A stretch of DNA of 64,000 bases from Candidatus Spongiisociaceae bacterium (GCA_965262915.1 OZ253564.1:3904001-3968000); one strand, 5' to 3'. Shown: positions 1,533 to 62,033, counted from the first letter of the stretch. The notes: generated by a model not told the origin, from the sequence alone. Made by a program: numbers and translations.

Positions 1533-2885
1533 TCAATTACTTTCGATAGTGAAATCGTCGGCGCCCGGGACCCGCACCACCTCCGGATAGGTAACACCGA
1601 ACGGTCGGGTCGCGTCGATACCCCACACCGAGATGACCTCCTTCTCCGGGGCCGAGGGATCCAGGGGGCCACCCGCCACGCGTGGAACGATGATCACGTC
1701 CTCGGCCGGTTGGCTCCGGGTCATGATCGCCCAGTTGACCGCTTCGGTGTCGTACACGTCTATGTCCTCGTCCACCATGACCACCAGCTTCGGCCGCGAC
1801 GAGTCCCCGAGAGCGGTGAGGATCACATGTCGCGCCTGTGCCTTGTAGCGCTGCTCCAGGGCGATGACCGCCGCGTACTGGACACCGCCCCAGTTCGGGT
1901 AGGAGACGGCAGTGACCTCCGGGAAGGTCTCCCGTAGCTTCTCGTAGAGGGCGCTCTCGTACGCGAACGACTTGAGGACGTGGTTGTCGGTGGGAGGTAT
2001 GCCGGTCATCCCCGCCAGGAAGATCGGATCGCGACGGTGGGTGATCGCAGTCACCTCGATGACATGGTTCTCCTCCGCAGGTCCGTAGTAGCCGGTGAAC
2101 TCACCGAACGGTCCCTCCATCACCCGCTCGCCCGGCAGCACCCGCCCTTCGATCACGATCTCGGCCGATGCAGGGACCTCGAGATCCACCGAGACACACT
2201 TGACAACGTCCACCGGCTCCCCCCTGATGCCTCCGGCCACCGTCATCTCGTTCACACCTTGGGGAACCTTGGCCTGAGACGCATACAGGAGAACCGGATC
2301 GCAACCGTTAACGATCGCTATGTCCAACGGCTCGTCACGCCGCTCAGCCCGTGCCATGTGCGTTCCGAGACCTTGAAAGGCGTGTGACATGACCGACATA
2401 CGGTCCTTTCCGGTGCGCATCACCCGATACACCGACGCGTTGACCGACCGGTCGATCGGGTCCTTGCTCACTTCGAGCGCCACGGTCACGTACGGACCGC
2501 CGTCCTTTTCGGAATAGACCGGCATAGGTAACGAGTTCAGGTCGATGTCGTTCCCGGTATGAACCACCTCCTGGCACTCCCCTGAGGGGACCAGCCGAGG
2601 CTCGACAGGGTTTCTCAGTCCGTGGGAGAACCGGGCGTTGCCTTCCGCCGCGGAGTCCACCTCCAGAGCCAGCAGGGCCTTGAACCTGTTGGTGAACACG
2701 GCGCCGGCCACCGGCATGTCATGGCCGGTGACGTTCTCGAACATCAGAGCCGGACCACTCGTGTCCGCCATCTTCCGGATGCCCGCGGCAATCTCGAATC
2801 GTGTGTCCACCGGGCGGCTGACGCGCGCCAGGTCCCCTGCTGCTTCCAGTGCCGAGAGAAACTCACGGAGATCATGAAAAGGCAT
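1533..2885 (-). CDS. UbiD-family prFMN-dependent (de)carboxylase 1
   Basis: MPFHDLREFLSALE start with GGAGGT RBS; VNASVYR; canonical EGPFGEFTGYY motif; VDEDID; LDPS; IDATRP. Confidence 0.95.
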   Translation of the reverse strand: MPFHDLREFLSALEAAGDLARVSRPVDTRFEIAAGIRKMADTSGPALMFENVTGHDMPVAGAVFTNRFKALLALEVDSAAEGNARFSHGLRNPVEPRLVPSGECQEVVHTGNDIDLNSLPMPVYSEKDGGPYVTVALEVSKDPIDRSVNASVYRVMRTGKDRMSVMSHAFQGLGTHMARAERRDEPLDIAIVNGCDPVLLYASQAKVPQGVNEMTVAGGIRGEPVDVVKCVSVDLEVPASAEIVIEGRVLPGERVMEGPFGEFTGYYGPAEENHVIEVTAITHRRDPIFLAGMTGIPPTDNHVLKSFAYESALYEKLRETFPEVTAVSYPNWGGVQYAAVIALEQRYKAQARHVILTALGDSSRPKLVVMVDEDIDVYDTEAVNWAIMTRSQPAEDVIIVPRVAGGPLDPSAPEKEVISVWGIDATRPFGVTYPEVVRVPGADDFTIESN

Positions 2886-3167
2886 CGAAACGACCTCCAT
2901 ATCGTGTCGCCGCACCGACTGTACGCATGTGGGCGACCCGGAGCAACAAGCTCTTTGGGGGTGCCGGCCGGCCACGACCCGATCGTCGGACGCCAAGCGG
3001 GCACCTGACGGGCCACCGACCGGCCGTCGCAGCATCGTCATGCTCCTGCCTATCCCGGGGGATATCCGGACAAGAGAAGTCCGAAGCCATGCAGAACCGT
3101 CCCGAGAACTCTTTGCCGCTTCAAGCCGTCGATGGGACGACGGGAATCAGTGGTTCTTCTGCGTGAT

Positions 3168-3635
3168 CTACGAGGAGCCGGCTCGGCGTTCTTCCAGAAG
3201 CCGGGACACGTTCGCAAGCGACCCGATCACGACCTGCTCCGCCTTGATGCCGACTATCCGTTGGCCGAACGTCGCCACACGGCCGACCATCCGGACATCG
3301 GCGGTGATGGCGATCTCGGTCGCCGCTCCGTCGTCCGCCTCGGTGAAGGCGAAGACCTGCTCGGAGTGGACGGAGCTTCCAAGACCCGTGTCCGTGCCAT
3401 CAACCACGGCAGTGACGCTCTTGAGTGGATCGAGATCCGTGAGTTTCGTAGTCAGCTTGAACCGGGCCGTCACGGGCCCGACCCGCTGCGTGAGCAGGGC
3501 ACTGAACGCCTTGGGTCCTGTCGCCTTGTAGTTGCTGATTCCCGGAATGCACAGAGCCACTGCTTCGATGTCGTCCATCAGACCCCAGATCTCGGCGGGC
3601 GGGGCTCCGATTCTCACCGTCTTTTCGAATTTCAT
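3168..3635 (-). CDS. coxG: CoxG/SRPBCC-family protein
   Basis: MKFEKTVRIGAPPAEIWGLMDDIEAVALCIPG...VGPVTARF...GRVATFGQRIV; GGAGGT RBS before the ATG at 3635. Confidence 0.85.
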   Translation of the reverse strand: MKFEKTVRIGAPPAEIWGLMDDIEAVALCIPGISNYKATGPKAFSALLTQRVGPVTARFKLTTKLTDLDPLKSVTAVVDGTDTGLGSSVHSEQVFAFTEADDGAATEIAITADVRMVGRVATFGQRIVGIKAEQVVIGSLANVSRLLEERRAGSS

Positions 3636-4012: not shown

Positions 4013-4894
4013 GTGCGACGTGATATGGAACTACTACGCGGAGCAATCGACATGCATGCGCACACCGCGCCCGCTCTGTTTCCCCGTCCTATTACCGACC
4101 AGGATCTCGGCAGCTACGCGCTCGACTACGGCATGCGCGGGTTCGTGTTGAAGGACCATGACAGCGCCACTTTTCACCGCGCCGCCCAGCTGAAGCGTTC
4201 CATGCCCGGCATCGACCCCGTCGGCGCGATCGTGTTGAATCGCTCGGTCGGAGGAATCAACCCCTACGTCGTCGAAGCAGCCCTCCATTACGGCGCCAGA
4301 GTGATCTGGATGCCCAGCAACCACTCGCAGCACCACGACGACTACTTCGGGATACCGGACTACCCGCAGTTGGGTCGCATGCGGCGACAACTTCCCGGCC
4401 CGGGCGTCACCGTCCTTGACGAGAACGGTCGCCTGACCGACGACGCCAAGATGGTCATCAAGCTGGTGGCGGACGCGGGTGCATGCCTTTGCACAGGCCA
4501 CCTGAACCTCGATGAGACCCGCCTTGTCATCAAGGAGGCGAACAGGGTGGGGCTCGAGAGGCTCGTGGTTACCCACGTCAACTGGGCCCTGACCAAGTAC
4601 GACCTGGAAATCCAGCGGGAATTGGTGGCTGCGGGTGCGTACCTAGAGATCGTTGCGATCTCCTGCGTGTCGCCCACCTTCTACGAGCAGGCACCGTCCG
4701 AGCTCGCGCCGATAATCGACGCGCACGCCGGAGAGCGACTGATCCTCACTTCCGACCTCGGCCAGGGTTCGGGACCACCTCATCCCGAGGGGTTGCGCAT
4801 GATCCTCCACTCGCTCCTCGACGAAGGTGTCGACTACAGCGCTCTCGAGAAGATGACCAAGGAAAACCCCGCATTCCTTACGGGTCTGGGTTGA
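4013..4894 (+). CDS. Metal-dependent amidohydrolase-fold protein (DUF6282-like)
   Basis: DMHAH, LKDH, WMPS, TGH, VTH and SDLGQ motifs. Confidence 0.8.
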   Translation: MRRDMELLRGAIDMHAHTAPALFPRPITDQDLGSYALDYGMRGFVLKDHDSATFHRAAQLKRSMPGIDPVGAIVLNRSVGGINPYVVEAALHYGARVIWMPSNHSQHHDDYFGIPDYPQLGRMRRQLPGPGVTVLDENGRLTDDAKMVIKLVADAGACLCTGHLNLDETRLVIKEANRVGLERLVVTHVNWALTKYDLEIQRELVAAGAYLEIVAISCVSPTFYEQAPSELAPIIDAHAGERLILTSDLGQGSGPPHPEGLRMILHSLLDEGVDYSALEKMTKENPAFLTGLG

Positions 4895-5001: not shown

Positions 5002-6597
5002 TTGCCACGGACGTTGCGCCCACAAGTCCGCAAGTCCGCCCAACTGGATGCGGCGGAGGATCTGACTCCGCCGCAGGAGCGGCATCCGTCTGACGGTCCG
5101 GTGCTGAGGATGCGCGGCATCCGGAAGACCTACCCGGGAGTGATCGCGAACGACAATGTCGATCTCGATGTCTATCCCGGGGAGATCCACGGGCTTCTCG
5201 GCGAGAACGGGGCCGGGAAGACCACGCTGATGAAAATCCTCTACGGTCTCTCTCAGCCCGACGCGGGGTCGATCGAGATAAAGGGACGCCCGCTCGTGGT
5301 GCGCTCGCCGAGGGACGCGGTCGATGCCGGCATCGGCATGGTTCACCAGCATTTCATGCTCGTACCGGACATGACGGTGGCCGAGAACGTGGCGCTCGGG
5401 TTCCGGACCGAACGGTATCCGCTGACGGACCTGGCCAGGATCTCCGCCGATGTGACCGAGCTGTCGCGTGTCCACGGCCTCGAAGTGGATCCCGGGGCCG
5501 TCATCGAAGATCTCTCGGTCGGAACCAGGCAGCGGGTGGAGATCCTCAAGCTGCTTCATCGTTCAGCCGAGATCCTGATCCTCGACGAGCCCACATCGGT
5601 CCTGACACCCCAGGAATGGGAGGACCTCGCCGCGGTGCTCCGGTCCCTCGTAGCCGAAGGTCGCGCCGCGGTGTTCATCACCCACAAACTCGACGAGGTG
5701 ATGGCCGTGGCGGATCGGTGCACGGTCCTGCGCGACGGAGCGGTCGTCGGAACGGTAGACGTGGAGGACACCGACAAAGCCTCACTGGCGAGGATGATGG
5801 TCGGCCGGCCAGTTGTCTTCCGCGCTACCCGAGAAGAGGTAGAACCGGGCGAACCGGTGCTCGAAGTGGAGGACCTCTCTCTCACCGACAGCACCGGCAA
5901 GGTAGTCCTCGAGAGGATCACCTTCGAGGTTCGAGCCGGGGAGGTGTTGGGCGTGGCGGGGGTAGACGGAAACGGTCAGACCCAGTTGGTGGACGTCCTC
6001 ACCGGCATGCGGCGGCCGGCCACCGGACGGATCCTCATCGGCGGCGAGGAGATCGACCGCCTCACTCCCGGCGGATTCCGGCGCCGTTCCGGTGGTGTGA
6101 TCACCGAAGACCGGCACGAGAAGGGCCTCGCCCTCGACCTGTCCCTCCGGGACAACCTCATAATGCGTGACTACCGAGATCGTCCTCTTTCGTCCCGGGG
6201 CGTACTCGACCTGGCTTCGATCAGGAAGCACTGCGTCAACCTGATACGCCGCTTCGATGTTCGAACCCCGAGCCAGACGATCCGGATGCGCCAGCTCTCA
6301 GGGGGTAACCAGCAGAAGTCAATCCTGGCGCGGGAGCTCTTCGCTGCCCCGAACCTGCTCATCGCCTCCCAACCGACGCGAGGGCTCGATGTGGGCGCAA
6401 TGGAGTTCGTGTATGCGTCCCTCCTCGAACGGAAGCGGGAAGGAGCCGCCCTGTTGCTCATATCCACCGAACTGGACGAGATCCTCTCTCTCAGCGACCG
6501 GATAGCGGTAATAGCCAATGGGCGATTCCTGCGTATCCTCGACGCACATGACGCGGACGCCGAGACCCTGGGTTTGTTGATGGGAGGTGAGGGGTAG
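5002..6597 (+). CDS. ABC transporter ATP-binding protein, nucleoside/sugar (NupA/YufO type), importer 1
   Basis: Two ABC domains: GENGAGKTT, LDEPT, LSGGNQQK, QPTRGLD. The true start may be near 5101. Confidence 0.95.
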   Translation: MPRTLRPQVRKSAQLDAAEDLTPPQERHPSDGPVLRMRGIRKTYPGVIANDNVDLDVYPGEIHGLLGENGAGKTTLMKILYGLSQPDAGSIEIKGRPLVVRSPRDAVDAGIGMVHQHFMLVPDMTVAENVALGFRTERYPLTDLARISADVTELSRVHGLEVDPGAVIEDLSVGTRQRVEILKLLHRSAEILILDEPTSVLTPQEWEDLAAVLRSLVAEGRAAVFITHKLDEVMAVADRCTVLRDGAVVGTVDVEDTDKASLARMMVGRPVVFRATREEVEPGEPVLEVEDLSLTDSTGKVVLERITFEVRAGEVLGVAGVDGNGQTQLVDVLTGMRRPATGRILIGGEEIDRLTPGGFRRRSGGVITEDRHEKGLALDLSLRDNLIMRDYRDRPLSSRGVLDLASIRKHCVNLIRRFDVRTPSQTIRMRQLSGGNQQKSILARELFAAPNLLIASQPTRGLDVGAMEFVYASLLERKREGAALLLISTELDEILSLSDRIAVIANGRFLRILDAHDADAETLGLLMGGEG

Positions 6598-6601
6598 AGC
6601 C

Positions 6602-7705
6602 ATGCACCCGCTAGTGCGCAAGGTGATGTTGAACGGGGCCATTGCCATCGGCCCGGTCATGGCCGCCCTGCTCGTGGCTGCCGTCGTGCTCGCGCTGGCG
6701 GGCGCCCCACCCGTTGATGCGCTCAAGGCGCTTCTGAGCGGGTCGGTCGGCGGGCGCATCCAACTCGCCCGTACTCTTAGCTTCCTGTTACCGCTCGTTC
6801 TGATCGCGCTGGCGTGGATCCTCGCCTTCACCACCAAGCGGATAAACCTCGGGCTCGAAGGGCAGATCATCGTCGGTGGGATCGTCGCCACCGTGATCGG
6901 GCTCCACCTCACCGGGCTCCCGACCGGCGTCCATATCCCGCTGGCGATGGTCGGAGGCGCCTCGGCGGGTGCTCTCTACGCGGGGATCGCGGCCTGGTTC
7001 TGGGCGAAGAGGGACGTCAACGAGATCATCTCGACCCTCATGCTGACGCTCATCGCGGCGGAGGCGCTCAGCTGGCTCGTGAGGGGGCCCATGCAGGAAC
7101 CGGGCGTCGTGTTCCCCAGAAGCAGCGAGGTGGCGCAAACCGCGCAATGGGGGACGATCGTGGCCAACAGCGCCCTGACGTGGGACATTCTCCTGGTTCC
7201 GGTTGCGGTGATCGCCGTCGCGTTCCTGCAGAACCGGACCACGTTCGGGCTGACGCTGCGGATCACCGGCGCCAATCCGACGGCAGCCCGCCACGTGGGT
7301 ATAAGGACCGTACGTATCAACGCTGCGGCCCTGATCCTGTCGGGCGCGTTGGCGGGAACTGTCGGCGCATCGCTGATCCTCGGCGGGGAAACCGGCCGCA
7401 TGGGCGATGGGTTCTCGGCCGGCTTCGGCTTCGAGGGAATCGTCGTGGCTCTCGTCGCCCGCAACAACCCGTTCGGCGCCGTTCCCGCCGCGCTGCTCTT
7501 CGCCGTGCTCGACTCGGGCAGTGGCCTGATGGAGACCCGCGTCGGGGTCGCTTCCGAACTCGTATACGTGACCCAGGGTCTGGTGATCCTCTTCGTCGCG
7601 GGTACCGCGTACCTGTACAACCGGGCGAGACGAACCCGGGTCGACGCCTCCCAGAACAGCCCAATTCGCCCGTCGACCGGGACGGACATGGTAGGTACGG
7701 GCTGA
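6602..7705 (+). CDS. ABC transporter permease (NupB type), importer 1
   Basis: NLGLEGQ, NEIISTLML, GFGFEGIVVALVARNNP; multiple TM helices. Confidence 0.92.
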   Translation: MHPLVRKVMLNGAIAIGPVMAALLVAAVVLALAGAPPVDALKALLSGSVGGRIQLARTLSFLLPLVLIALAWILAFTTKRINLGLEGQIIVGGIVATVIGLHLTGLPTGVHIPLAMVGGASAGALYAGIAAWFWAKRDVNEIISTLMLTLIAAEALSWLVRGPMQEPGVVFPRSSEVAQTAQWGTIVANSALTWDILLVPVAVIAVAFLQNRTTFGLTLRITGANPTAARHVGIRTVRINAAALILSGALAGTVGASLILGGETGRMGDGFSAGFGFEGIVVALVARNNPFGAVPAALLFAVLDSGSGLMETRVGVASELVYVTQGLVILFVAGTAYLYNRARRTRVDASQNSPIRPSTGTDMVGTG

Positions 7706-8781
7706 TGGGAGTGTTCGACGTCTTCTGGCTGGCCACCACACTGCGTCTCGCAACGCCCTTGATCTTTGCGTCAAGCGGTGAACTGCTTGCCGAACGTACG
7801 GGCGTTCTGAATATCGGCCTCGAGGGTTTCATGCTGTCCGGCGCTTTCTTCGGGTTCCTGGGTACGTACCTGACCGGTAGCTTCGTGGTGGGCGTCGCAT
7901 TGGCGATAGTGGCCGGGATCATCTTCGCCGCCGCGATGGCGTTCCTCTCCATCCGCCTCCGCGCCGACCAGATAGTGGTAGGCATCGGGATCAACATCCT
8001 GGCCCTCGGGGTGACATCCTTCGCCTTCCGCGAGATATTCAGCGGCCCGCAGGTCCTCCTGGATCGGCCCGAGCCATGGGAATGGCCGCTCCTGTCCCGT
8101 ATCCCGGGTGTGGGTCAGGCGCTGTTCGCCCAACCCGGGTGGGTCTACTTTGCGCTGGTAGTCGTGGCGGCCGTCTGGTTCGTGCTGCAACGCACCACTT
8201 GGGGACTGTCGATGCGGGCCACCGGCGAGCTACCCGAGGCGGCCGACACGGCCGGATCGAGCGTCTTTCGCAACCGCTGGATCGCCACGTTGGTAGCGGG
8301 GGGACTCGCCGCCGGAGGAGGCTCATTCCTGTCGATCGAGCTCGGAGTATTCATCGAGGGAATGACCAACGGGCGAGGCTACCTGGCGCTTGCTGCGGTC
8401 ATCTTCGGTCGCTGGCGGGCAACCGGCGTCCTCTTCGCATGCCTCCTCTTCGGCGGGGCGGACGCCCTGCAGCTTCGACTCCAAGCGGAGGCGGCTGTCC
8501 CCTTCGAGGTCTGGTTGGTCCTGGCTCTCCTCGGTCCTGCGTATCTGGTGGCCGCAAGGCGATCTCTCAAGTCCCGTCACCCACTCACTCTGGCCACCAT
8601 CGGTTGCCTGACGCTGATCGGGTTGGTGCTGGCAGTGATCCAGCCGCAGTTCACGCTGCCCGCACAGCTCTGGCGGACGCTCCCGTTCGTGCTCACGATC
8701 ATCGTTCTGGCCGGGTTCATCGGACGCTCATGGATGCCCTCCACCTTGGCTATCCCGTACAGCCGGGAGGCTGAAACGTGA
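7705..8781 (+). CDS. ABC transporter permease (NupC type), importer 1
   Basis: ATG overlaps the upstream TGA; ATPLIFASSGELLAERTGVLNIGLEG; GRGYLALAAVIFGRW; P..LAIPY.RE end. Confidence 0.92.
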   Translation: MGVFDVFWLATTLRLATPLIFASSGELLAERTGVLNIGLEGFMLSGAFFGFLGTYLTGSFVVGVALAIVAGIIFAAAMAFLSIRLRADQIVVGIGINILALGVTSFAFREIFSGPQVLLDRPEPWEWPLLSRIPGVGQALFAQPGWVYFALVVVAAVWFVLQRTTWGLSMRATGELPEAADTAGSSVFRNRWIATLVAGGLAAGGGSFLSIELGVFIEGMTNGRGYLALAAVIFGRWRATGVLFACLLFGGADALQLRLQAEAAVPFEVWLVLALLGPAYLVAARRSLKSRHPLTLATIGCLTLIGLVLAVIQPQFTLPAQLWRTLPFVLTIIVLAGFIGRSWMPSTLAIPYSREAET

Positions 8782-8897
8782 GCACTACCGCTTCGGTTAG
8801 AGTGCATATCTCACGAGACGAGAACCGGCTGTCGCGGGGTGGAGACGCTCCTTAGAATCGGTCGGTATATCGCACCTCGAGTTGAAGGATTCGCCAC

Positions 8898-13428: not shown

Positions 13429-13452
13429 CAACCAAGGCGTCGAACTCCCGAG

Positions 13453-51580: not shown

Positions 51581-52745
51581 CTAGTCGGAGAGGGTCGGCT
51601 CAGCCGTCATGATGGGGTATGACATAGGGGATGATTCGTCGGCTGTCTTGCTGAGTGGGTCCCAGTGGTGGGCGGTGTCCCAATAGTGCTGGGCGGCAAC
51701 TTGCAAGTCGTCTAGCAACTCCGGGAGGTCGAGGTCGGGGATTACCCGGTTGCTCATGACGATCTTTCCGTCGACGAGCACGGTTTCCACGTCGTCTCCT
51801 ATACCGCAGTCCACCAGGGCGCTGATCGGGTCTCGGATGACGCCATAGCGGAGACTGTCGGGCGCCCGCAGCCCGATGACCACGATATCGGCTTTGGCGC
51901 CGGGAGCGATACGGCCCAGGTCGTCACGGCCCAAGGCTCGAGCACCGCCCAGGGTTGCCGCTTCGAACACTTCTCCTGCGGTGGCAGCGGCGAAGTCTCG
52001 CTCCATGATCTTTCCAACATACGAGGCCATCCTCATCTGCATGATCAGGTCGCGGGGATAGGTGTCGGCGCCGAGGGCGATGTTGACCCCGGCTTTCTTG
52101 TATTTGGTGAACGAGTCGAGGAACCGTCCCCTCCTGAACAGGTTGACCGGGGAGTGGGAAACGGAGGTTCCGGTGCCCCCCAGGATCTCGAGGTCCCTAC
52201 CACCGGCCCAGTTGGTCAACGGGTTCTCTGCAACCAGTTGGCCGTGACCGATGATCACTTCAGGCCCGAGCAGCCCGACTCGTTCGAGCAGTTCGATGGG
52301 GGTACACCCGTGGCGTTCCACGATGTATTGCCATTCCAGGGGACTGTATGCGGCGTGGGTCTGCACCGGTACACCGAGCTCCTCCTTGAGCGCTACCGTC
52401 TTCTCGAGCAGCGGCACCGAGCAGTACTCCAGTTCCTCAGGAACGAGGATTCCCCGGATGCGGCCGTCGGCGGCGCCGTCGTACTCCTTGATGAACTCCA
52501 CCGCCTCGCGCAGTTCACCCTCACCGTCGTCCTTGGTCGGTACCCGCCGCCAGCGGCCATCCTCGGTACCCTCGAATACCTCGGATTCGTAACCGGGGCT
52601 CAGATACGCCCGGGATCCCATCTCCTCGACCACAGCCGCAGTCGGAGTCACGCGTTCCTTAGCACTGCCGACATCGACGAACGTCGTCACCCCATTCCGA
52701 AGCAACTCGGTCACGACGAACCGCGCCGTCAGCAGATCAGCCTCG
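51581..52745 (-). pseudogene. 5'-truncated chlorohydrolase/SsnA-type amidohydrolase
   Basis: ARFVVTELLRNGVTT, THAAY, IGHG, LGADT, RIAPGAKAD are present, but the N-terminal beta-domain and HxH metal motif are missing; in-frame TAG at 52769-52771. Confidence 0.75.
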
Positions 52746-53253: not shown

Positions 53254-55662
53254 GTGACCACCACGAGTACCCTTCGTCATGTCGGTAAGCCATACCTGGG
53301 TCTCACCAACCGAGAGCTAGCCGCCGGGAAAGGCCTGTTCGTCTCCGACATCGTCCTCCCTGGCATGGCCCACCTGGCGATCCTGAGAAGCCCTCACGCG
53401 GCCGCACGCATCGTTTCGATCGACACTTCCGCAGCCGAGGAACTCGACGGCGTGGTGTACGTGATGACCGGGGATGAGGCGAAAGCCCAGATGCGCCCGA
53501 TCCCCGAAGCGTGGAACACCAAGGAGATCGGCGCCAAGGGCGTCGACTGGTACGCGCTAGCGCCGGACCGGGTCCGTTACGTGGGCGAAGCAGTAGCTGC
53601 GGTTGTCGCCGAGTCGAAGAACACCGCTTTCGAAGCGGTCGAACTGATCGATGTCACGTACGAGGTGCTGCCCGCCGTGACCGACCCGCGAGCAGCCCTC
53701 GCAGAGGATTCGGTGCTGGTCGAGCCCGAGTGGGGCGACAACCTCCTGATCACGAGGGACTGGCGCACCGGCGACATGGAAGGTGCTTTCGAGCGCGCCG
53801 AGCGAATCATCGAAGGCGAAGTCCGGTCTGAACGGATAACCGGTGTTTCGATAGAACCGAGAGGCTCGGTTGCCCAGTACGACATCTACCAAGACAAGCT
53901 GACGCTCTGGGAATCGACCCAGAACCCCCACCCGCTGAGAACCTTCCTCGCCGAGACGCTAGGCATCCCCGAGAGGACCATACACGTGATCCAGCCCAAC
54001 GTCGGGGGCGCGTTCGGGCTCAAGCAGCCGCCCTTCCAAGAGCAACCCCTCATCGCATATCTGGCGCGAAAGCTCGGTCGGCCCATCAAATGGATCGAGG
54101 GACGGGACGAGAACTTCGCAACCACCGGCCATTCCCGCGACGTGGGGTTCCACTACCGGGCGGCGTTCGACAGTGAAGGCATCGTCAGCGGCCTCGACAT
54201 CGAGGTGGTGGCGGATGTAGGCGCGCCGACCGCCCTCCTGGGCTGGGGCCAGTCGTTCGTCACCGCCTACTGCTTGCCCACGGTGTACCGCGTCCCCAAC
54301 AACCGCATCCAACTGTCGGTCGTGGTCACCAACAAGACACCGTGGAATGCCTACCGGGGATTCGGAAAGGACTCCGCCACCTTCCTCATGGAGCGGATCA
54401 TCGATCGCGTGGCCCGCGAAACCGGTCTCGATCGCGCAACCGTCCGCTATCGCAACTTCATCCAGCCGGACGAGTTCCCGTACTCGCAACCATCCGGAGC
54501 CATGCTCGACAGCGGCAACTATCCGGGAACCCTGGACAAGGTTCTCGCGATGGTCGGCTGGGACGACTTCCCGGACATGCAGCGCCGGGCGCGCGAGGAG
54601 GGTCGCTACATCGGAATCGGTCTCAGCCACGAACTGACCCCCGAGGGTTGCGCGATGCCCGGGGCGGTGCTGATCTCGGCCTATGAAGGAGCCACCGTGC
54701 GAGTCGCCCCGTCGGGCGACGTCACGGTCCTCACCGGCATCACCTCACCCGGTTGCGGCAACGAGACTGCAATGGCCCAGATCGCCGCCGAATTCCTGGG
54801 CTGCGAGATCGAGCACATCAAGGTAATCCAAGGCGACACGGAATCCTGTCCCTACGGTCTGGGTAACTTCAGCTCCAGAGCCACCATGTACGGCGGCTCG
54901 GCCGTGCAAGCCGCCGCCACGGAATTGCGCGAGAAGATGTTCCGCATCGCCGGCAAGATGCTGGAGGCCGCGCCCGAGGACCTCGATGCCGCGCACGGCA
55001 AGATCTTCGTGCTGGGGGCGGAGAGCCGCAATGTCGGTTTCGCGGACGTCGCCAACCAGGTCTACCGCCACACCTTCGGACAGTACGCCGACGAGGAGGA
55101 ACCCGGACTCGAATCGACTCGCTATTTCAGGATGGGGAACGTCTACCACCAACCCGAGAAGCAGGGCCGTTTCAGCAACTACCCGGCTTGGCCCAGCGGG
55201 AGCGCAGCGTGCATCATCGAGGTTGACCCGGATACCGGAGCGGTAAAGGTCCTGCGATTCTGCCTGGTGGACGATGCGGGCACGGTTATCAACCCCCTAC
55301 TCGTAACGGCGAACCTGCACGGATCCCTGGCCCAGGGCATCGGCGGGTCCATGTACGAACAACTGGCCTACGACTCCAACGGGCAGTTGCTGACAGCGAC
55401 ATTGATGGACTACACCATTCCGACCGCGGTCGAGATGCCCAGGTTCGAGATCGAGCACCAGGAAACCCCCTCACCCTTCACCCCGCTAGGAATGAAGGGT
55501 GTGGGTGAATCCGGTATCGGCGTGTGCCTGAACGCATTGTGCAGCGCCATCGAGAACGCCTTTCCCGAACTCGACCTGGAGATCAACGAGTTGATCCTGA
55601 CACCGGGCCGGGTCTGGCACGCCATCAACGAATCACGACGACGCCTGGGGGTCACGCTTTGA
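53254..55662 (+). CDS. Xanthine dehydrogenase-family molybdopterin-binding large subunit (CoxL-like; not form I CODH)
   Basis: RSPHAAARI; VRYVGE; STQNPH; VGGAFGLK; AYRGFG; SSR; DAGTVINP; DYTIPT; KGVGESG. Confidence 0.95.
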   Translation: MTTTSTLRHVGKPYLGLTNRELAAGKGLFVSDIVLPGMAHLAILRSPHAAARIVSIDTSAAEELDGVVYVMTGDEAKAQMRPIPEAWNTKEIGAKGVDWYALAPDRVRYVGEAVAAVVAESKNTAFEAVELIDVTYEVLPAVTDPRAALAEDSVLVEPEWGDNLLITRDWRTGDMEGAFERAERIIEGEVRSERITGVSIEPRGSVAQYDIYQDKLTLWESTQNPHPLRTFLAETLGIPERTIHVIQPNVGGAFGLKQPPFQEQPLIAYLARKLGRPIKWIEGRDENFATTGHSRDVGFHYRAAFDSEGIVSGLDIEVVADVGAPTALLGWGQSFVTAYCLPTVYRVPNNRIQLSVVVTNKTPWNAYRGFGKDSATFLMERIIDRVARETGLDRATVRYRNFIQPDEFPYSQPSGAMLDSGNYPGTLDKVLAMVGWDDFPDMQRRAREEGRYIGIGLSHELTPEGCAMPGAVLISAYEGATVRVAPSGDVTVLTGITSPGCGNETAMAQIAAEFLGCEIEHIKVIQGDTESCPYGLGNFSSRATMYGGSAVQAAATELREKMFRIAGKMLEAAPEDLDAAHGKIFVLGAESRNVGFADVANQVYRHTFGQYADEEEPGLESTRYFRMGNVYHQPEKQGRFSNYPAWPSGSAACIIEVDPDTGAVKVLRFCLVDDAGTVINPLLVTANLHGSLAQGIGGSMYEQLAYDSNGQLLTATLMDYTIPTAVEMPRFEIEHQETPSPFTPLGMKGVGESGIGVCLNALCSAIENAFPELDLEINELILTPGRVWHAINESRRRLGVTL

Positions 55663-56504
55663 TCACGCGGGAACTGGAACTGCTGAGACCGAAGACCAGC
55701 GCAGAGGCGGTGGCGCTGCTCGCCGAACGGGGCGAGGACATCACCGTCCTGGCAGGAGGCATGAGCCTCGTTCCGATGATGAACCTGGGAATCGTGCAGC
55801 CTGACGTCGTCATGTCGCTCAACCACATCACCGACCTCGTCGGCGTAACCTACGAGGGCGAGCTCCGGATCGGCGCCATGGTCCGTCACCGGGAGGTGAA
55901 GGAAAACGAGCTCATCAGAACCCACGCTCCGATGATGTCCGCGGCTGCCGGCCTGGTCGGGGACGTGCAGGTAAGGAATCGCGGGACCATCGCGGGGAGC
56001 CTCTGCCATGCCGATCCTGCCGGCGAGTACTCGCCGGTGGCTGTGGTCTCGGGCGCCGATATCGAGTTGGCCAGCAGCGCCGGGACCCGCCGGATGCCCG
56101 CGGACGAGTTTCTTATCGATCTCATGTTCACCGCCCGCGAGTTGGACGAACTCGTCACCGCCGTCATAGTGCCCAGCCAGCCCGCCGGCGCGGGTTCCGG
56201 ATACGTACGTTTTGCCCGGGTAGAGGGCAGCTTCGCTATCGTCAACGCAGCCGCTCTGATCGCGCCCGGCTTCCGGTCGACGAAGGTAGCCATCGGCGGA
56301 GTGGGAGCCACGCCGGTAGTGGTCGATGCCTCGGACACCTTCGCCAACGGTCCCGAACCCGCCGCCTTCGAAGAACTGGCCACGAGAGCATACGAGGCCG
56401 CTGAGTATGCCTCATCGGACATCCACTCCGATGCCGAGTACCGGCGGCACATGGCGGGCGTGTTCGCCAACCGAGCGGTCCAGCAAGCCATCACGAGCAT
56501 GTGA
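55659..56504 (+). CDS. Mo-hydroxylase FAD-binding medium subunit (CoxM-like)
   Basis: LAGGMSLVPMMN; QVRNRGTIAGSLCHADP; SDIHSDAEYRR. TTG start overlaps the large-subunit stop. Confidence 0.93.
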   Translation: MITRELELLRPKTSAEAVALLAERGEDITVLAGGMSLVPMMNLGIVQPDVVMSLNHITDLVGVTYEGELRIGAMVRHREVKENELIRTHAPMMSAAAGLVGDVQVRNRGTIAGSLCHADPAGEYSPVAVVSGADIELASSAGTRRMPADEFLIDLMFTARELDELVTAVIVPSQPAGAGSGYVRFARVEGSFAIVNAAALIAPGFRSTKVAIGGVGATPVVVDASDTFANGPEPAAFEELATRAYEAAEYASSDIHSDAEYRRHMAGVFANRAVQQAITSM

Positions 56505-56520
56505 TCGAGGTGAATGAGTC

Positions 56521-57009
56521 ATGAACACCCGGATCAGCCTGAAGGTAAACGGTAAGCACGCAACCGTCGACATCGACACTCGGACGATCCTGGTCGACAT
56601 GATTCGGGACGAGTTGCGACTTACCGGTTCCCACGTCGGTTGCGCGACCGGCAACTGCGGGGCATGCACGGTGCTCCTCAACGGCAAGACCGTCAAGTCG
56701 TGCTGCGTGCTGGCCGCCGACGCCCACGGCCAAGAGGTGCAAACCATCGAGTCCTTGAGTTCCGGTCCCAATGATCTGCATCCCATCCAGGAGGCGTACA
56801 TCGATAATCAGGGGTTGCAGTGCGGCTTCTGCACCCCGGGAATGATCCTGTCAACCCTCGTCCTCCTGCAGGAGAATCCCGATCCGAGCGAGTCCGAGAT
56901 ACGTCACGGAATAGCAGGTAATCTCTGCCGCTGTACGGGGTACCACTTCATCGTCGACTCGATCGAGGACGCCGCGGCCCGCCTACGTTCGGGGGCGGAG
57001 GCTCCGTGA
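56521..57009 (+). CDS. Mo-hydroxylase 2x[2Fe-2S] small subunit (CoxS-like)
   Basis: [12 protein letters not shown]; KSC; QCGFCTPG; NLCRCTGY. Confidence 0.95.
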
Positions 57010-57093: not shown

Positions 57094-58350
57094 GTGAAAG
57101 TGACAAAGTACTGGCATCCGTTCGCAGATATGCGAGCCATCACCCGAGGTTCGGAACTCGTCCTCGACCGGACCGAGGGCTATTACGTCTACGACACCGA
57201 CGGCCGCCGCTACCTCGACGCCACAGCGAGCCTCTGGTATTGCAACGTCGGCCACGGTCGCACCGAGATTGCACGGGCCGCGTTCGAGCAGATGCAGCAG
57301 CTCGAGGCCTACTCGACCTTCGGCGACCTGACCAACCGGCCCGTGATGGCGCTGACGGACCGGCTCGCCCAGATCGCTCCGGTCCCGGACAGCGTGTCCT
57401 TCCTGACCAGCGGGGGCTCGGATTCGATCGACACCGCCGTCAAGCTGGCCCGCCTTTACCACAAGGTCATGGGCGAACCGCAGCGAACCTATGTGCTGAG
57501 CAGGTTCAGGGCGTACCACGGCATGCACACGGCCGGGACCAGCGTGGCCGGCATTGCGGCCAACCTGGACGGGTACGGACCGCTCCTGTCCAAGACCCGG
57601 GTGGTCGGCTGGGATTCGCACGACGACCTCGTCGAAGCTCTTGACGAGTTGGGTCCGGAGAACGTTGCCGCCTTCGTGTGCGAACCCGTGATCGGGGCAG
57701 GCGGCGTCCTCGCCCCTCCCCCCGGCTACCTCGAGAAGGTCCGCGGTATCTGCCGCGACTCAGGGGTGCTCTTCATAGCCGATGAGGTGATAACAGGCTT
57801 CGGTAGGACCGGAGCATGGTTCGCGAGTGAGCGATGGAACCTGACCCCGGACCTCATCACCTGCGCCAAGGGAATAACGTCCGGCTACCTGCCGCTCGGT
57901 GCGGTGATCGTCTCCCCGTGGATCGCCGAACCGTGGTTCGAAGGAAGTGCCGGCATGTGGCGGCACGGCTACACGTACTCGGGACATGCCACGGTTGCCG
58001 CAGCGGCAAACGCCAACCTCGACATCATGGAACGCGAGGGTCTGGTACGGGCGGCGGTGCGACTGGAGGCCAGTCTGGCGACCGGGCTCACCCCCCTATC
58101 GAACCACCATCTCGTCAGCGAGGTACGCGCCGGTGTGGGAGCGTTGGCCGCCGTACAGTTGTCCTCGGAAGCGGTGGATGAGGATCCCGGGCTGCCCAAC
58201 AGGCTCGTTGGTGCGTTGCGCGAGCACGGAATCCTAACCCGGATGCTGTTCGGCGATGCCGTACAGGTGTCACCACCGCTCACCCTTGACGACGCCGGTG
58301 TCAAGGAACTCGCCGACGGAATCCGCGGCGCCTTGGACGCTGTGGGCTGA
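57094..58350 (+). CDS. Class III PLP-dependent aminotransferase
   Basis: YWHPF; SLWYCNVGHG; SGGSD; AYHG; ADEVITGFGRTG; AKGITSGY; HGYTYSGH. Confidence 0.95.
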   Translation: MKVTKYWHPFADMRAITRGSELVLDRTEGYYVYDTDGRRYLDATASLWYCNVGHGRTEIARAAFEQMQQLEAYSTFGDLTNRPVMALTDRLAQIAPVPDSVSFLTSGGSDSIDTAVKLARLYHKVMGEPQRTYVLSRFRAYHGMHTAGTSVAGIAANLDGYGPLLSKTRVVGWDSHDDLVEALDELGPENVAAFVCEPVIGAGGVLAPPPGYLEKVRGICRDSGVLFIADEVITGFGRTGAWFASERWNLTPDLITCAKGITSGYLPLGAVIVSPWIAEPWFEGSAGMWRHGYTYSGHATVAAAANANLDIMEREGLVRAAVRLEASLATGLTPLSNHHLVSEVRAGVGALAAVQLSSEAVDEDPGLPNRLVGALREHGILTRMLFGDAVQVSPPLTLDDAGVKELADGIRGALDAVG

Positions 58351-58464
58351 AAGATGTGCCCGACCGGGGGCACGACCCCGAGGCCGTCCCATAAGTGTCC
58401 GATCGGTCAAGCGATCAAGTTTGCCGTAACCAGATAGACAAGCAGAACAGGAGATCAAGATTCA

Positions 58465-59871
58465 ATGAGCAAGTTCGATCTGGTAATCCACGGGGGAACC
58501 CTGGTTTTCACCGATGAGGCTGTTCCCGGCGATATCGGGGTCAGAGACGGGAAGATCGCCGCAATCGCCGCGCCCGGGATGCTCGGCAACGGTACCCGGA
58601 CCATCGATGCCACCGACCTGCATATCTTTCCGGGTGCCGTAGATCCTCACGTCCACCTCCAGACCTTCCAGAGCCCGTTCGATGTGAACGTGAAGACCGA
58701 AACCCGGAATGCCGCCATCGGTGGATGCACGACCATGGTCCCGACTCTCCTCAACCGGGAGGATGCCTCGGTTTCGTTCCTCGACTACTACCCCTGGGCG
58801 CTGGAAGCCGTCCAGCGTGATTCCATCATCGATGCCGGTTTCAGTGCCGTGATAGGAACTGATCAGCAGATCGAAGAGCTACCGGCGATGGCTTACGACT
58901 GCGGCATAACGTCCTACAAGTTCTACATGGCCTACACCCAGGACGAGGCGTCGGTGTTCGGCATCCTGGCGGTCGACGATGCACAGTTCCTGGCCGGCCT
59001 CCGGCAGGTGGCGGCCATCGGCAAGCCCGCGATCGCCATGGTGCATGCGGAGAACATGTCCATCATCCACAACCTGAAGGCCAAGTACATAGCCGCCGGA
59101 CGCGACGACCTCAAGGCATGGACCGACGCCCGCCCCGACATCGCCGAGGAGGAAGCCACCCGCCGGGCGATCTGGTACACCAAGGAAACCGGCTCCCAGC
59201 TCTACATCGTCCACATGACGATCGGCCGCGGAGTCGACTGGGTCCGCCAGGCAAAGGCCGAAGGCGTTGACGTGATCGCCGAAACCTGCCCGCACTACCT
59301 GGTACTGACCAAGTACGACAACGACAAGGTGGGAAGCCTGGCCAAGGTGAACCCGCCGCTGCGCGACGCCGAGAGCCAGGAGAAACTCTGGGAGGGTCTC
59401 CGCGACGGCACCGTAACGTGTGTCGGTTCCGACCATTCGACGGTGGTCGCCAAGCCGGACAAGGTCAACACCAGCATATGGGACGCCGTGCCGGGTTTCC
59501 CCGGGATGGGGATGCTGCTGCCCGTCATGCTCAGCGAGGGCTACCACAAGGGCCGTATCTCGTTGCCGGACGTCTCCCGGATCCTGGGCCTGCAGAACGC
59601 CGAGGTATGGGGTCTCTACCCCAAGAAGGGTGTCCTCCGGGTCGGCTCCGACGCCGACTTCGCCATCGTCGACCTCGATCAGGAGCGGGTGGTAACGCCC
59701 GAGTACATGCAGTCGGCGGCCAACTGGGGCCTGTACGACGGTTGGAACCTGAAGGGGTGGCCGACCCAGACCATCGTGAGAGGCACCGTCGTCATGGACT
59801 CCGGCGAGATTGTCGGCGACCCATCGTACGGTCAGTACATCCCGAGGTATCCGTACGACAAGACAAGCTAG
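58465..59871 (+). CDS. Cyclic amidohydrolase (dihydropyrimidinase/allantoinase/dihydroorotase family)
   Basis: VDPHVH; SYKFYMAY; VHAEN; VHMT; ETCPHYL; KVNPPLR; GSDH; KKG..VGSDAD. Confidence 0.93.
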   Translation: MSKFDLVIHGGTLVFTDEAVPGDIGVRDGKIAAIAAPGMLGNGTRTIDATDLHIFPGAVDPHVHLQTFQSPFDVNVKTETRNAAIGGCTTMVPTLLNREDASVSFLDYYPWALEAVQRDSIIDAGFSAVIGTDQQIEELPAMAYDCGITSYKFYMAYTQDEASVFGILAVDDAQFLAGLRQVAAIGKPAIAMVHAENMSIIHNLKAKYIAAGRDDLKAWTDARPDIAEEEATRRAIWYTKETGSQLYIVHMTIGRGVDWVRQAKAEGVDVIAETCPHYLVLTKYDNDKVGSLAKVNPPLRDAESQEKLWEGLRDGTVTCVGSDHSTVVAKPDKVNTSIWDAVPGFPGMGMLLPVMLSEGYHKGRISLPDVSRILGLQNAEVWGLYPKKGVLRVGSDADFAIVDLDQERVVTPEYMQSAANWGLYDGWNLKGWPTQTIVRGTVVMDSGEIVGDPSYGQYIPRYPYDKTS

Positions 59872-59943
59872 TGGTCTGAGGTAACCACCTGAGACTGCTC
59901 GGTGTGCCTCACCCATCCGGAAACGCCTACTGAAGATCGAGCG

Positions 59944-60855
59944 ATGAACCCAGAAACCTATCCCGGGGCTGGTTCCTGGCCGGTACGCCGCTGGTTCGCG
60001 GACGTTGTTGACGTGGAGCGGCAATTGGCCGCCCACGACTACCTGGCCGATCGAGGGTTGGCGACCGCGGTATTCCTCGCCACGTCCCTGAACCTACCCC
60101 TGCTGCTCGAAGGGGAGGTAGGGGTGGGCAAGACCGAGGTGGCTAAGGCGGTCGCCCAAGCCCTGGACCGCCGGGTCGTGCGCCTCCAGTGTTATGAAGG
60201 TATCGACTCGAGCCAGGCGCTGTACGAATGGGACTACCCCCGCCAGCTTCTGTATCTCCGAGCGGTGGGAGACACCAGATCCGATAAGGAGAATGTTGTC
60301 GAAGATCTGTACGGGCCCCGCTTCCTGAACGAGCGTCCGCTGCTCGAGGCCATACGAACCGGTTCGGGAGCGGTGCTGCTCATCGACGAGATCGACCGAG
60401 CCGATGACGAGTTCGAGGCGTTCCTGCTCGAGGTTCTGGCCGACTTCCAGATCTCGATCCCTGAGATCGGCGCCATCCGAGCCGAGCAACCTCCCATCGT
60501 GGTGCTGACCACCAACCGGACACGTGAGCTCCACGATGCTCTCAAGCGACGCTGCCTGTATCACTGGATCGATTACCCGGATCTGGATCGCGAGATGGCG
60601 ATCGTGCGCGCCCGGGTTCCAGAACTCCCAGAGGATCTGGCCCGGCGGATCGTCGAAGCGGTCCACCGTTTCCGGCGGCTCGACCTGATCAAGCTGCCGG
60701 GTATCGCCGAGACCATCAACTGGGCCCTAACGCTCGACCTTCTAGGGGTCGACCAGCTCGAGCCCGATCCGGTGGCACCGACCCTCGGCGCCCTGCTCAA
60801 GGAGAGAGAGGACATCGACCGGGTGAAGCCTCTCCTCGAAGAGATACTCGATTGA
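59944..60855 (+). CDS. coxD: MoxR-type AAA+ ATPase, CoxD-like
   Basis: LLEGEVGVGKTE; RLQCYEG; ALYEWDY; LIDEIDRADDEFEAFLLE; HDALKRRC. Confidence 0.9.
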   Translation: MNPETYPGAGSWPVRRWFADVVDVERQLAAHDYLADRGLATAVFLATSLNLPLLLEGEVGVGKTEVAKAVAQALDRRVVRLQCYEGIDSSQALYEWDYPRQLLYLRAVGDTRSDKENVVEDLYGPRFLNERPLLEAIRTGSGAVLLIDEIDRADDEFEAFLLEVLADFQISIPEIGAIRAEQPPIVVLTTNRTRELHDALKRRCLYHWIDYPDLDREMAIVRARVPELPEDLARRIVEAVHRFRRLDLIKLPGIAETINWALTLDLLGVDQLEPDPVAPTLGALLKEREDIDRVKPLLEEILD

Positions 60856-62033
60856 TCCCACCTGCCGCTGATCCGGCTCAGGTGCTGGTTTCCTTCGGTC
60901 ACGCGCTTCGTGATCAGGGCATAAGCGTGAGCCCTGCCGAGATCGTGACGTTCTGCAGGGCTGTATCCGTGCTCGGCGCCGATCACCTGGATGATGTCTA
61001 CTGGTCCGGGAGAACGTGCCTGGTTTCCGAGCACGCCGACATCCCAGCTTACGACGTCGCCTTCGCCTCGTTCTTCCTCGGCTCGGAACCGGAGTTATCG
61101 TCCGAGAGCGGGGAGGAGCCGGACTCCCCACCCGGTGAGGTAGCCACCTCGGATCCGAGCGGGGAGCGGTCTTCGTTCGTCGACTCCGCAGATGTCCACA
61201 CTGGTAGCGGGGAATCAGAGCACGAGGAAGAGCCGGACCCGGGTGCCGTGGCCTCACTCTACGAAACGCTCCGGCACCGATCGTTCTCGGAATGGACCGA
61301 GGAGGAGAAGTCCGCCCTCGCCATGCTCATCGCCCGGATCGAGGTCCGGGTACCGCGCCGATGCACCAGGCGACTACGTCCGGCCCCGACCGGAACCCGG
61401 CTAGATCTGCGCAGAACCGTCCGCAGCGCTCTGCAGAGCGACGGCGAAGTCCTTCGCAGATCGTGGAGGCGGCGCGTCGTCAAATCGAGGCGCATCCTGC
61501 TGTTGGTGGATGTCTCAGGGTCCATGTCCACCCAGTCGAGAGCCATGCTGCACCTCGCCTACGGACTGGTGACAAGTACCTTGAATACCGAAATCTTCTG
61601 CTTCGGCACGAGGCTCACGCGGACCACCGAATTGCTCAGGGGACGCGACCCCGACCGCGCCGTCGATCGGGCTTGCGCCGGGGTGGTCGACTGGGCGGGC
61701 GGTACCAGGATCGGTGACTCGCTCGTGTCGCTCCTCCGGGATCCCATCGCCCTCAGGCAGGTGCGGGGATCAGTGGTTCTGGTCGCATCGGACGGTCTCG
61801 AGACGGGGGATCCCGAGTTGATGGCGAGTCAGGTCGCTCGCCTGTCCCGGCTGGCCTACTCGGTCGTATGGATGAGCCCCCTCAAGGCAGATCCTTCCTA
61901 CCGTCCCCTGACCCGGGGCATGCGGCGCGCCTTCCCCCATCTCGATCATCTGGTAGCTGCGGATTCGTTGAACGATCTCGAGAAAGTCGCCCATCTCCTC
62001 CCGATGCTCGTCTCCGGCATCCGCTCCCCATAG
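60852..62033 (+). CDS. coxE: vWA-domain protein, CoxE-like
   Basis: DLRRTVR; DVSGSM; FGTRLTR; WAGGTRIG; SDGLETGD; PLTRGM. Confidence 0.9.
   Translation: MIPPAADPAQVLVSFGHALRDQGISVSPAEIVTFCRAVSVLGADHLDDVYWSGRTCLVSEHADIPAYDVAFASFFLGSEPELSSESGEEPDSPPGEVATSDPSGERSSFVDSADVHTGSGESEHEEEPDPGAVASLYETLRHRSFSEWTEEEKSALAMLIARIEVRVPRRCTRRLRPAPTGTRLDLRRTVRSALQSDGEVLRRSWRRRVVKSRRILLLVDVSGSMSTQSRAMLHLAYGLVTSTLNTEIFCFGTRLTRTTELLRGRDPDRAVDRACAGVVDWAGGTRIGDSLVSLLRDPIALRQVRGSVVLVASDGLETGDPELMASQVARLSRLAYSVVWMSPLKADPSYRPLTRGMRRAFPHLDHLVAADSLNDLEKVAHLLPMLVSGIRSP

Follow-up and report, generated by a model that had tools for sequence, protein, structure and literature searches.

A Candidatus Spongiisociaceae catabolic region joins a Rieske oxygenase array to a conserved gene set probably directed at nucleobase-like nitrogen rings

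The described systems that come closest to the genes reported here are the lumazine/pterin cluster I of Cupriavidus sp. LA-1, the clostridial xanthinase pathway, the reductive pyrimidine pathway (pyd) and the NdmABCDE/HpxDE oxygenase systems. We studied a 64,000-nucleotide stretch of DNA (the window), positions 3,904,001-3,968,000 of the single-contig 5.06-Mb genome (96% complete) of a Candidatus Spongiisociaceae bacterium, in which the 48 genes called between 1533 and 62033 are almost all importers or catabolic enzymes. Nineteen of these form a conserved set, core P, that to judge from its enzymes probably dismantles nucleobase-like nitrogen rings; an array of Rieske oxygenases lies among the others. 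The enzyme families and their chemical logic are known; the combination and its substrates are not described in searchable literature, and core P is a conserved gene set not yet described there (our literature search, which left subscription journals mostly uncovered, found no description of it).

According to PMC12391406, lumazine cluster I shares with core P a three-subunit molybdenum (Mo) hydroxylase, UbiD and UbiX, and amidohydrolases, and in both a bicyclic N-heterocycle would be attacked without an oxygenase; core P differs in adding a hydantoinase-like enzyme, a carbamoylase, an aminotransferase, an aldehyde dehydrogenase (ALDH), a short-chain dehydrogenase/reductase (SDR) and multiple UbiDs. 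The pairing of a Mo-hydroxylase with a prenylated flavin mononucleotide (prFMN) decarboxylase, which an earlier sequence-only reading of the window had not recognised, in combination with the Rieske array, from any pathway, is described for lumazine breakdown in that paper, but the window genes are not orthologs of that cluster. As proxy we took a cluster on a Paracoccus plasmid whose genes are ordered as described there: UbiD1 was 34%, UbiD2 32%, the amidohydrolase pair AH2a/b at most 25% and the hydroxylase subunit CoxL 32% identical to it (the authors' criterion for an XC decarboxylase is >60% similarity), no GTPase occurs in the window, and the lumazine assignment was rejected. True lumazine orthologs of this genome lie ~410 kb away, at ~3.490-3.498 Mb (L181:9939-17604; XC decarboxylase 58%, DHL isomerase 77% for one subunit, GTPase 45%), and would depend on the window UbiX because it is the only copy found in the genome (a single match). 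Near them are the glycine/sarcosine/betaine reductase selenoprotein genes GrdA, GrdB and component B (L183:18230-18538, L181:177-4416).

The clostridial xanthinase pathway reportedly includes a prFMN decarboxylase. Compared by description (Tong et al. 2023, as cited in PMC12507026), it is like core P in that a cyclic amidohydrolase opens a fused uracil ring before hydrolysis and decarboxylation. Core P differs in its number of Mo enzymes (five) and UbiDs (four), in having an aminotransferase/ALDH/SDR set, and in coexisting with uricase in a distant family. This comparison could reclassify core P. The pyd pathway shares ring opening, decarbamoylation, transamination and aldehyde oxidation with core P, but the cyclic amidohydrolase of the window, Hyd, falls below the dihydropyrimidinase cut-off and core P contains no PydA/PreTA. 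With NdmABCDE/HpxDE the window has in common the Rieske + VanA_C architecture, the broad clade, tandem paralogs, adjacent one-carbon (C1) genes and purine importers, but its enzymes form clades of their own and are only 27-37% identical, and a GR-type reductase together with a ferredoxin of the [3Fe-4S] type apparently takes the place of NdmD/NdmE/HpxE. Orthology and cut-off comparisons agree with the earlier statement that this is neither the ndm nor the pyd cluster, and extend it to hpx and to the lumazine cluster; the puc/all route is likewise missing, with 0 matches each in the host genome for uricase, hydroxyisourate (HIU) hydrolase and 2-oxo-4-hydroxy-4-carboxy-5-ureidoimidazoline (OHCU) decarboxylase.

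Layers and extent of the catabolic region

The sequence-only reading had presented the window as one 60-kb island with a single linear route. Instead its genes split into four layers of differing distribution, 19 in layer 1 (core P) and 29 in layers 2-4, and we regard it with high confidence as a layered mosaic, neither one island nor one pathway. The layer 1 genes are UbiD1, CoxG, DUF6282, the NMT1 protein with two permeases, UbiX, ALDH, IclR, SDR3, CN hydrolase, UbiD2, CoxL/M/S, aminotransferase, Hyd and CoxD/E, whose orthologs (41-78% identity) are packed together on contigs of four genomes of one distant actinobacterial family. There the identities are 69-70% for UbiD1, 43-47% for CoxG, 69-72% for DUF6282, 51-73% along the run ALDH-IclR-SDR3-CN hydrolase-UbiD2, 60-66% for the aminotransferase and 76-78% for Hyd. 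UbiD2 was found at 60-63% in four of 300 genomes of the phylum, all of them in that family (4/21 there), and the same four carry a CoxL ortholog at 72-74%, three of them also UbiD3. Their contigs further hold orthologs of genes flanking the window (ATPase, UbiD3, UbiD4, four more CoxL and a PhdC-like gene), an alanine dehydrogenase above its cut-off, and the only linked Rieske gene of that family, which adjoins a nucleobase:cation symporter and an amidohydrolase. Because these assemblies are fragmented, the distant cluster was joined from two or three contigs per genome. Flanks included, core P comprises four uncharacterised UbiDs and five Mo-hydroxylase large subunits. Closer to the host, the run from ALDH to UbiD2 keeps its order in six of the seven genomes of the genus, and UbiD2 is present in 6/7 of these vs 0/17 other genomes of the host family.

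A metagenome scan gave three further close loci and one fragment, the database names of UbiD2/DUF6282 relatives include Acidimicrobiales, Solirubrobacterales and Actinomycetes, and searches of plasmids returned no ortholog above about 40%. A Burkholderia plasmid (L169:10239-28665) carries an analogous cluster at only 30-39% identity, made of an ABC importer, CN hydrolase, amidohydrolase, racemase, ALDH, UbiD/UbiX and a Mo enzyme. Downstream of UbiD3, an unannotated 111-aa gene (L033:3253-3588), ~50% identical in the distant family, is a possible UbiD accessory subunit.

The remaining layers have narrower or more irregular distributions. The BMP-A importer, AH1, the Rieske oxygenase RO1 and a Zn-dehydrogenase accompany core P throughout the genus; RO1 and its dehydrogenase directly precede the ALDH-IclR-SDR3-CN hydrolase-UbiD2 run in four relatives and are the sole added genes physically tied to core P across the genus. 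In two relatives and the host, BMP-B, BMP-C, SDR1 and RO4 are inserted into this RO1-UbiD2 unit; RO3 has a wider distribution, whereas RO2 and a flavin adenine dinucleotide (FAD) oxidoreductase change position. Nine genes (SDR2, AH2a/b, formamidase, AH3, AH4, TauE, GcvT and AH5) were not seen in the relatives' syntenic stretches, the part of those genomes that was searched; reads of four runs, each from a different study, cover them. Conserved synteny held for most of the arrangement in two close relatives, but it breaks into the four layers, and by their distribution the Rieske/BMP/SDR blocks were added later, in the sponge lineage.

Genes were called with a self-trained caller and annotated with Pfam and NCBIfam, the AH2 pair being taken from the list of open reading frames (ORFs). 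The features, counted from the first letter of the window, are as follows.

1533..2885, minus strand: UbiD1, prFMN decarboxylase (Pfam UbiD); core P
3168..3635, minus: CoxG (PF06240); core P
4013..4894, plus: DUF6282, amidohydrolase-fold TIM barrel; core P
5110..9959, plus: BMP ATP-binding cassette (ABC) system A (ATPase, 2 permeases, binding protein); genus-level addition
10068..11660, minus: CrtO/phytoene-desaturase-like FAD oxidoreductase; mobile addition
12343..15106, plus: NMT1/THI5 binding protein and 2 permeases; core P
15113..16480, plus: AH1, Xaa-Pro-dipeptidase-like amidohydrolase; genus-level addition
16518..17081, minus: UbiX, passing the TIGR00421 cut-off; core P
17134..18108, minus: RO1, NdmA/HpxD-clade Rieske oxygenase; genus-level addition
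18301..19392, plus: Zn-dependent dehydrogenase, MscR paralog below cut-off; divergent from RO1
19478..25110, permeases and binding protein minus, ATPase plus: BMP ABC system B; sub-lineage insert
25366..26163, plus: SDR1, of the Rieske-associated SDR clade by paralog identity
26278..28483, minus: RO2 and RO3, tandem Rieske oxygenases
28661..33482, minus: BMP ABC system C, binding protein AtzT-like
33804..34556, minus: SDR2, divergent from RO4
34924..35979, plus: RO4, Rieske oxygenase of a family-wide clade by its place in the tree
36088..37851, minus: AH2a and frameshifted AH2b, Amidohydro_2 pair in a low-GC patch; species-level insert
38350..39456, plus: acetamidase/formamidase, absent from relatives' syntenic regions; species-level insert
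39731..45228, plus: ALDH-IclR-SDR3-CN hydrolase-UbiD2, the last two overlapping by 4 nt; core P
46379..50040, plus: AH3, AH4 (SsnA/MtaD-type, deaminase-like) and TauE; species-level insert
50151..52714, minus: stand-alone GcvT and N-terminally truncated AH5; species-level insert
53254..57009, plus: CoxL/M/S molybdenum hydroxylase; core P
57094..59871, plus: class-III aminotransferase and cyclic amidohydrolase Hyd; core P
59902..62033, plus: CoxD and CoxE; core P

Most of the earlier inventory was recovered with Pfam and NCBIfam: three BMP ABC systems, four Rieske/VanA_C oxygenases, GcvT, two UbiDs and UbiX, CoxL/M/S/D/E/G, a CN hydrolase, a formamidase, a class-III aminotransferase, an ALDH and three SDRs; it had left out the CrtO-like FAD oxidoreductase, IclR and TauE. 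Its eight amidohydrolase-fold genes are present, the eighth (DUF6282) established by a structure model and fold search, but two of the eight are broken. AH2b (37111-37851) is frameshifted, and an allele with one extra base there occurs also on contigs of three other studies; AH5 (51581-52714) lacks the N-terminal metal-binding part, and a contig of another study runs gap-free across its 5' end. The contigs of other runs thus do not support the idea that these two lesions stem from assembly error. AH2a and AH2b are 62% identical, and SDR1 is 49-51% identical to SDR2 and to two SDRs that flank a downstream Rieske gene. The NMT1/THI5 system has its binding protein and two permeases, but no ATPase within the window. 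As for the dehydrogenase at 18301..19392, called MscR-like before, it scores 387.9 against a TIGR03451 cut-off of 512.9 and is an MscR paralog; the true MscR (652) is encoded elsewhere in the genome.

Nor did the 60-kb bounds hold, since the core begins ~17 kb before the window and a Rieske cluster with electron donors lies downstream. The same families fill the flanks over ~3.87-4.10 Mb (ten flanking or related stretches yielded 145 genes, of which 137 were scanned), so that the catabolic region spans ~230 kb and is unbounded at either window end. With 20 genes of twelve catabolic families (median 1, runner-up 12), the window's 64-kb bin is the densest of 80 for these families, a figure that leans toward the window because the queries were derived from it. 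GC content is even at 0.60-0.65, except for 0.54 at 36-38 kb, and no tRNA was found in the window. A short simple repeat at 38074-38126, upstream of AH2b, marks the edge of the low-GC patch.

Core P enzymes and their predicted chemistry

Core P very probably acts on N-heteroaromatics. Hyd, CN hydrolase, aminotransferase and ALDH, taken with CoxL, the UbiDs, DUF6282 and the linked symporter, lead us to infer, with somewhat better than even confidence, that pyrimidine-containing heteroaromatics are its substrates. The best PDB match of UbiD1 is 6h6v (302 bits), presumably HmfF, to which UbiD2 is also nearest. Both have three UbiD domains and the Arg/Glu/Glu motif and pass TIGR00148; in UbiD2 a conserved Asp replaces the catalytic Glu (second acid of the motif), and the protein lacks a His that HmfF keeps at one position. 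Hyd scores 304.5 against the TIGR02033 dihydropyrimidinase cut-off of 393, with L- and D-hydantoinases as best PDB matches, and a canonical dihydropyrimidinase that passes the cut-off (562.6) is encoded ~125 kb downstream. The CN hydrolase ranks N-carbamoylputrescine amidase first and places beta-ureidopropionases and D-carbamoylases above omega-amidase (102 bits to N-carbamoyl hydrolases, 46 to omega-amidase). Together with the class-III aminotransferase, ALDH and the alanine dehydrogenase of the distant family, Hyd and the CN hydrolase make up the lower logic of ureide breakdown.

DUF6282 has an invariant HxH, H, H, D set, and its structure model (predicted local distance difference test score 94) matches lactonase/phosphotriesterase/dipeptidase folds with template-modelling scores of about 0.5-0.66 and at most 18% identity. 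A likely ATPase partner of the NMT1 importer lies ~12 kb before the window start, 62-64% identical in the distant family, where ATPase, substrate-binding protein and permeases are contiguous. Breakdown of the thiamine pyrimidine (hydroxymethylpyrimidine, HMP), suggested by the NMT1 protein, was set aside, its match to ThiY being weak.

In the proposed sequence of steps, the NMT1 importer would take up nucleobase-like, pyrimidine-containing heteroaromatics, Mo-hydroxylases would insert water-derived oxo groups, and the prFMN-dependent UbiDs would strip carboxyl groups, so that several related acids funnel to a cyclic ureide. SDR3 is a candidate ring reductase, a role that is a guess because core P has no dihydropyrimidine dehydrogenase. 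Hyd would then open the ring, and CN hydrolase would split CO2 and NH3 off the resulting ureido acid. The omega-aminotransferase and ALDH would convert the leftover amine to an acid, with alanine dehydrogenase, in the distant family, regenerating the amino acceptor. In a variant order that is equally open, Hyd and the carbamoylase would act first on a fused uracil ring and UbiD2 would then decarboxylate an amino-heteroaryl acid, as in the xanthinase route.

Rieske oxygenases, their electron donors and the purine importers

The genome encodes nine enzymes of the window Rieske clade among 16 Rieske domains. Relatives of RO3 occur in 20/24 genomes of the family and 0/15 other genomes of the order (one unpublished genome is excluded from these counts and from those for OHCU decarboxylase), and relatives of RO5 in only 2/199 Acidimicrobiia of other families, at ~39%. 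By these counts hardly any of the Acidimicrobiia searched outside this one sponge-symbiont family carry the array, and our literature search found no sponge-symbiont Rieske array described. The closest named match of RO3 (88%) is in a Ca. Spongiisociaceae genome and Acidimicrobiia are among its other matches above 60%; the host family is sponge-associated, and the earlier guess of a marine invertebrate symbiont is in line with both.

In the PDB, NdmA, SxtDIOX, SxtT and NdmB match ahead of dicamba demethylase, and an annotated HpxD is among the plasmid matches. Bit scores are 113-197 to the NdmA/NdmB/HpxD proxies vs 58-93 to VanA, and identities 27-37% to the NdmA/B proxies (assigned by gene order and length) and 32-37% to annotated HpxD. 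In a FastTree phylogeny of 37 sequences rooted on VanA, the enzymes fall into two separate clades: RO1/2/3/9 (support 0.93), and RO4-8 joined by one gammaproteobacterial sequence (support 1.0). Neither nests with HpxD or the NdmA/B proxies, and the deeper nodes, which would tell demethylase from hydroxylase, are poorly supported. By these comparisons the window oxygenases appear to group broadly with NdmA/HpxD and not with VanA, whose scores are weaker than those of NdmA/B, SxtT/SxtDIOX and HpxD. Purines, or alkaloids resembling them, are the substrates of the characterised relatives of this clade.

No Rieske reductase or ferredoxin lies within the window, and no reductase part of NdmD, no NdmE and no HpxE was found in the genome, the NdmD matches being to the Rieske domain only. 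About 55 kb downstream, RO5/RO6 share an operon with genes for a GR-type reductase and for a ferredoxin of 66 aa whose CxxSxxC...C motif has three cysteines ([3Fe-4S]-type), and these two genes stay linked to RO5 in two other genera; four P450 genes are located elsewhere in the genome. This pair is likely to supply electrons to the window oxygenases in trans, a donor set that to our knowledge is unusual for the clade.

The operon belongs to a cluster at ~4.02-4.07 Mb (L036:14323 to L039:4465) with the reductase, the ferredoxin, four Rieske genes, an SDR pair, CoxLMS, a BMP system, an FAD oxidoreductase, amidohydrolases, a tautomerase, GcvT, isocitrate lyase and single and tandem-domain genes of the nucleobase-deaminase family. 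It occurs in genomes without core P and is probably the better target for the methylpurine hypothesis. CrtO-like FAD oxidoreductases, 42% paralogs that are 90-96% conserved in relatives, adjoin BMP systems in both clusters (10068-11660; L037:7719-9323). Comparable parts occur elsewhere: Betaproteobacteria (L066, L068, L069, L076) carry one to four Rieske genes of a related clade, not ndm orthologs, with an NMT1 ABC importer and amidohydrolases. A second, similarly equipped lineage is that of Ca. Aldehydirespirator and related Acidimicrobiales (L056-L065), in which a single Rieske gene, ABC genes, CoxLMS and a BMP system make up a conserved unit.

The binding protein of BMP-C matches 6pi5 (203 bits) and 3s99 (197 bits). 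Its site residues W,S,F,G,H,W,N,N stand against Y45,S97,F98,E165,N169,W194,N218,N220 of the AtzT guanine site, as given in PMC6834077, so that six of eight positions are kept, with Tyr45 as Trp: both stacking aromatics, Ser97, Phe98, Asn218 and Asn220 are shared with AtzT and Brucella 3s99, but Gly stands for Glu165 (in the host genome and two relatives) and His for Asn169. These changes would take away a hydrogen-bond partner and could make room for a methyl group. The binding protein of BMP-A has weak matches to nucleoside/purine-binding lipoprotein structures.

PMC5793054 documents many methylated and 8-oxo purines in sponges, in keeping with the earlier suggestion of host methylpurines as candidate substrates; our literature search found no paper on symbionts degrading them. 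OHCU decarboxylase was found in 0/24 family genomes vs 7/15 other genomes of the order. For family members that lack core P, salvage is one option for demethylated purines.

Combined reading and rival explanations

We consider that core P was joined by added front ends feeding from host methylpurines, and give this combined reading a probability of roughly one half. The front ends would consist of BMP purine importers, Rieske oxygenases and deaminase-type amidohydrolases, with the MscR paralog, GcvT and formamidase handling C1 units; the oxygenases and amidohydrolases would N-demethylate and deaminate host methylpurines on electrons delivered in trans by the reductase and ferredoxin. Taken separately, action of the Rieske/BMP modules on methylpurines is slightly favoured, and N-heterocycle catabolism with a purine bias thus survives from the sequence-only reading, but its single linear route does not. 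Much more tentative, and on balance doubtful, is a stronger form in which core P is a largely oxygenase-free modified-nucleobase funnel of uncultured Actinomycetota, with four new UbiD subfamilies and five Mo-hydroxylases, combined with family-wide, position-specific purine N-demethylases running on a P450-type [3Fe-4S] ferredoxin.

Several observations weigh against the combined reading. For none of the enzymes is a characterised relative more than about 40% identical. The NMT1 protein scores only 78 bits to ThiY; CoxL resembles the hydroxylases of quinoline, CO and pyridine rings far more than it does xanthine dehydrogenase (quinoline 2-oxidoreductase is its best PDB match at 466 bits, xanthine oxidoreductases reach ~160); no dihydropyrimidine dehydrogenase occurs among the 48 window genes; and a DUF6282 relative in Thermus lies within an aromatic ring-cleavage cluster. 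The Rieske matches to NdmA and SxtDIOX tie (136 vs 134 bits), BMP-B keeps 2/8 AtzT positions (two stacking aromatics) and BMP-A the aromatic pair only. UbiD2 is missing from 17 family genomes of other genera, yet the Rieske clade occurs in most of these, so core P is dispensable for the majority of Rieske products. All four distant genomes with core P also have uricase and OHCU decarboxylase (16/21 and 18/21 in that family overall); core P is therefore not simply their xanthine route, and its proposed role as a uricase substitute is weakened.

Unlikely, to our mind, is that the Rieske enzymes hydroxylate C-methyl groups, which SDRs, Zn-dehydrogenase and ALDH would oxidise to acids for removal by the UbiDs, core P then degrading the carboxylates of pyridine, pyrrole, pyrazine or imidazole by 2,6-dihydroxylation, reduction of the ring and hydrolysis of an imide or lactam. 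RO1, the dehydrogenase and the run from ALDH through IclR, SDR3 and CN hydrolase to UbiD2 are neighbours in four relatives, the SDR clade recurs next to Rieske genes, the Zn-dehydrogenase is below the MscR cut-off, CoxL is nearest to quinoline and nicotine-pathway enzymes, and four UbiDs with five CoxL suggest several isomeric acids; this chemistry sits poorly with the CN hydrolase's preference for N-carbamoyl hydrolases, the purine and purine-like substrates of characterised relatives of the Rieske clade and the AtzT-like site retained in BMP-C. Distinctly improbable is a co-regulated 60-kb island taking methylpurines from import through to NH3, formate and CO2: every needed enzyme class is present, most of the arrangement is kept in two close relatives and the genome, lacking uricase, HIU hydrolase and OHCU decarboxylase, would need another purine route, but the genes fall into four distribution layers with nine unseen in relatives' syntenic regions, the core extends beyond the window with the Rieske donors ~55 kb off, and most Rieske-positive family genomes lack core P.

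An equally poor prospect is that the oxygenases are HpxD-like ring hydroxylases of modified purines, not demethylases. Annotated HpxD is among their nearest named matches and scores at least as high as NdmA for all four window enzymes; none, however, nests with HpxD in the tree, no HpxE was found in the genome, ~26 CoxL-like genes there could hydroxylate rings instead, and GcvT and the MscR paralog adjoin the Rieske genes. Carbocyclic or furan aromatics (vanillate, hydroxybenzoates, furandicarboxylate) are very improbable substrates: despite the VanA_C Pfam domain and the nearness of the UbiDs to 6h6v, with an automatic JGI label of 2,5-furandicarboxylate decarboxylase, VanA scores lowest, no ring-cleavage dioxygenase is among the 48 window genes, UbiD2 lacks the His kept by HmfF, and hydantoinase, carbamoylase, deaminases and aminotransferase would have no role.

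If the stronger form, with core P as a modified-nucleobase funnel, is true, the symbionts would be specialised in consuming the methylpurines of their sponge hosts by a route that bypasses uricase. The 60-kb gene list reduces to two units, the conserved core P, relevant to N-heterocycle turnover by uncultured actinobacteria, and the Rieske array with named candidate donors. The four uncharacterised prFMN decarboxylases are of interest for heteroaromatic (de)carboxylation catalysis, and position-specific demethylases for guanine/isoguanine scaffolds would widen the caffeine Ndm toolbox.

A DUF4143 fragment and an unannotated cysteine-rich ORF at 62265-62930 and 63226-63954 are non-catabolic and form a local break. 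Between UbiD2 and AH3 lies a 118-aa ORF (45602-45958) that matches MgtE_N weakly and has a single paralog, at 51%; an unrelated ORF of ~170 aa takes its place in relatives.

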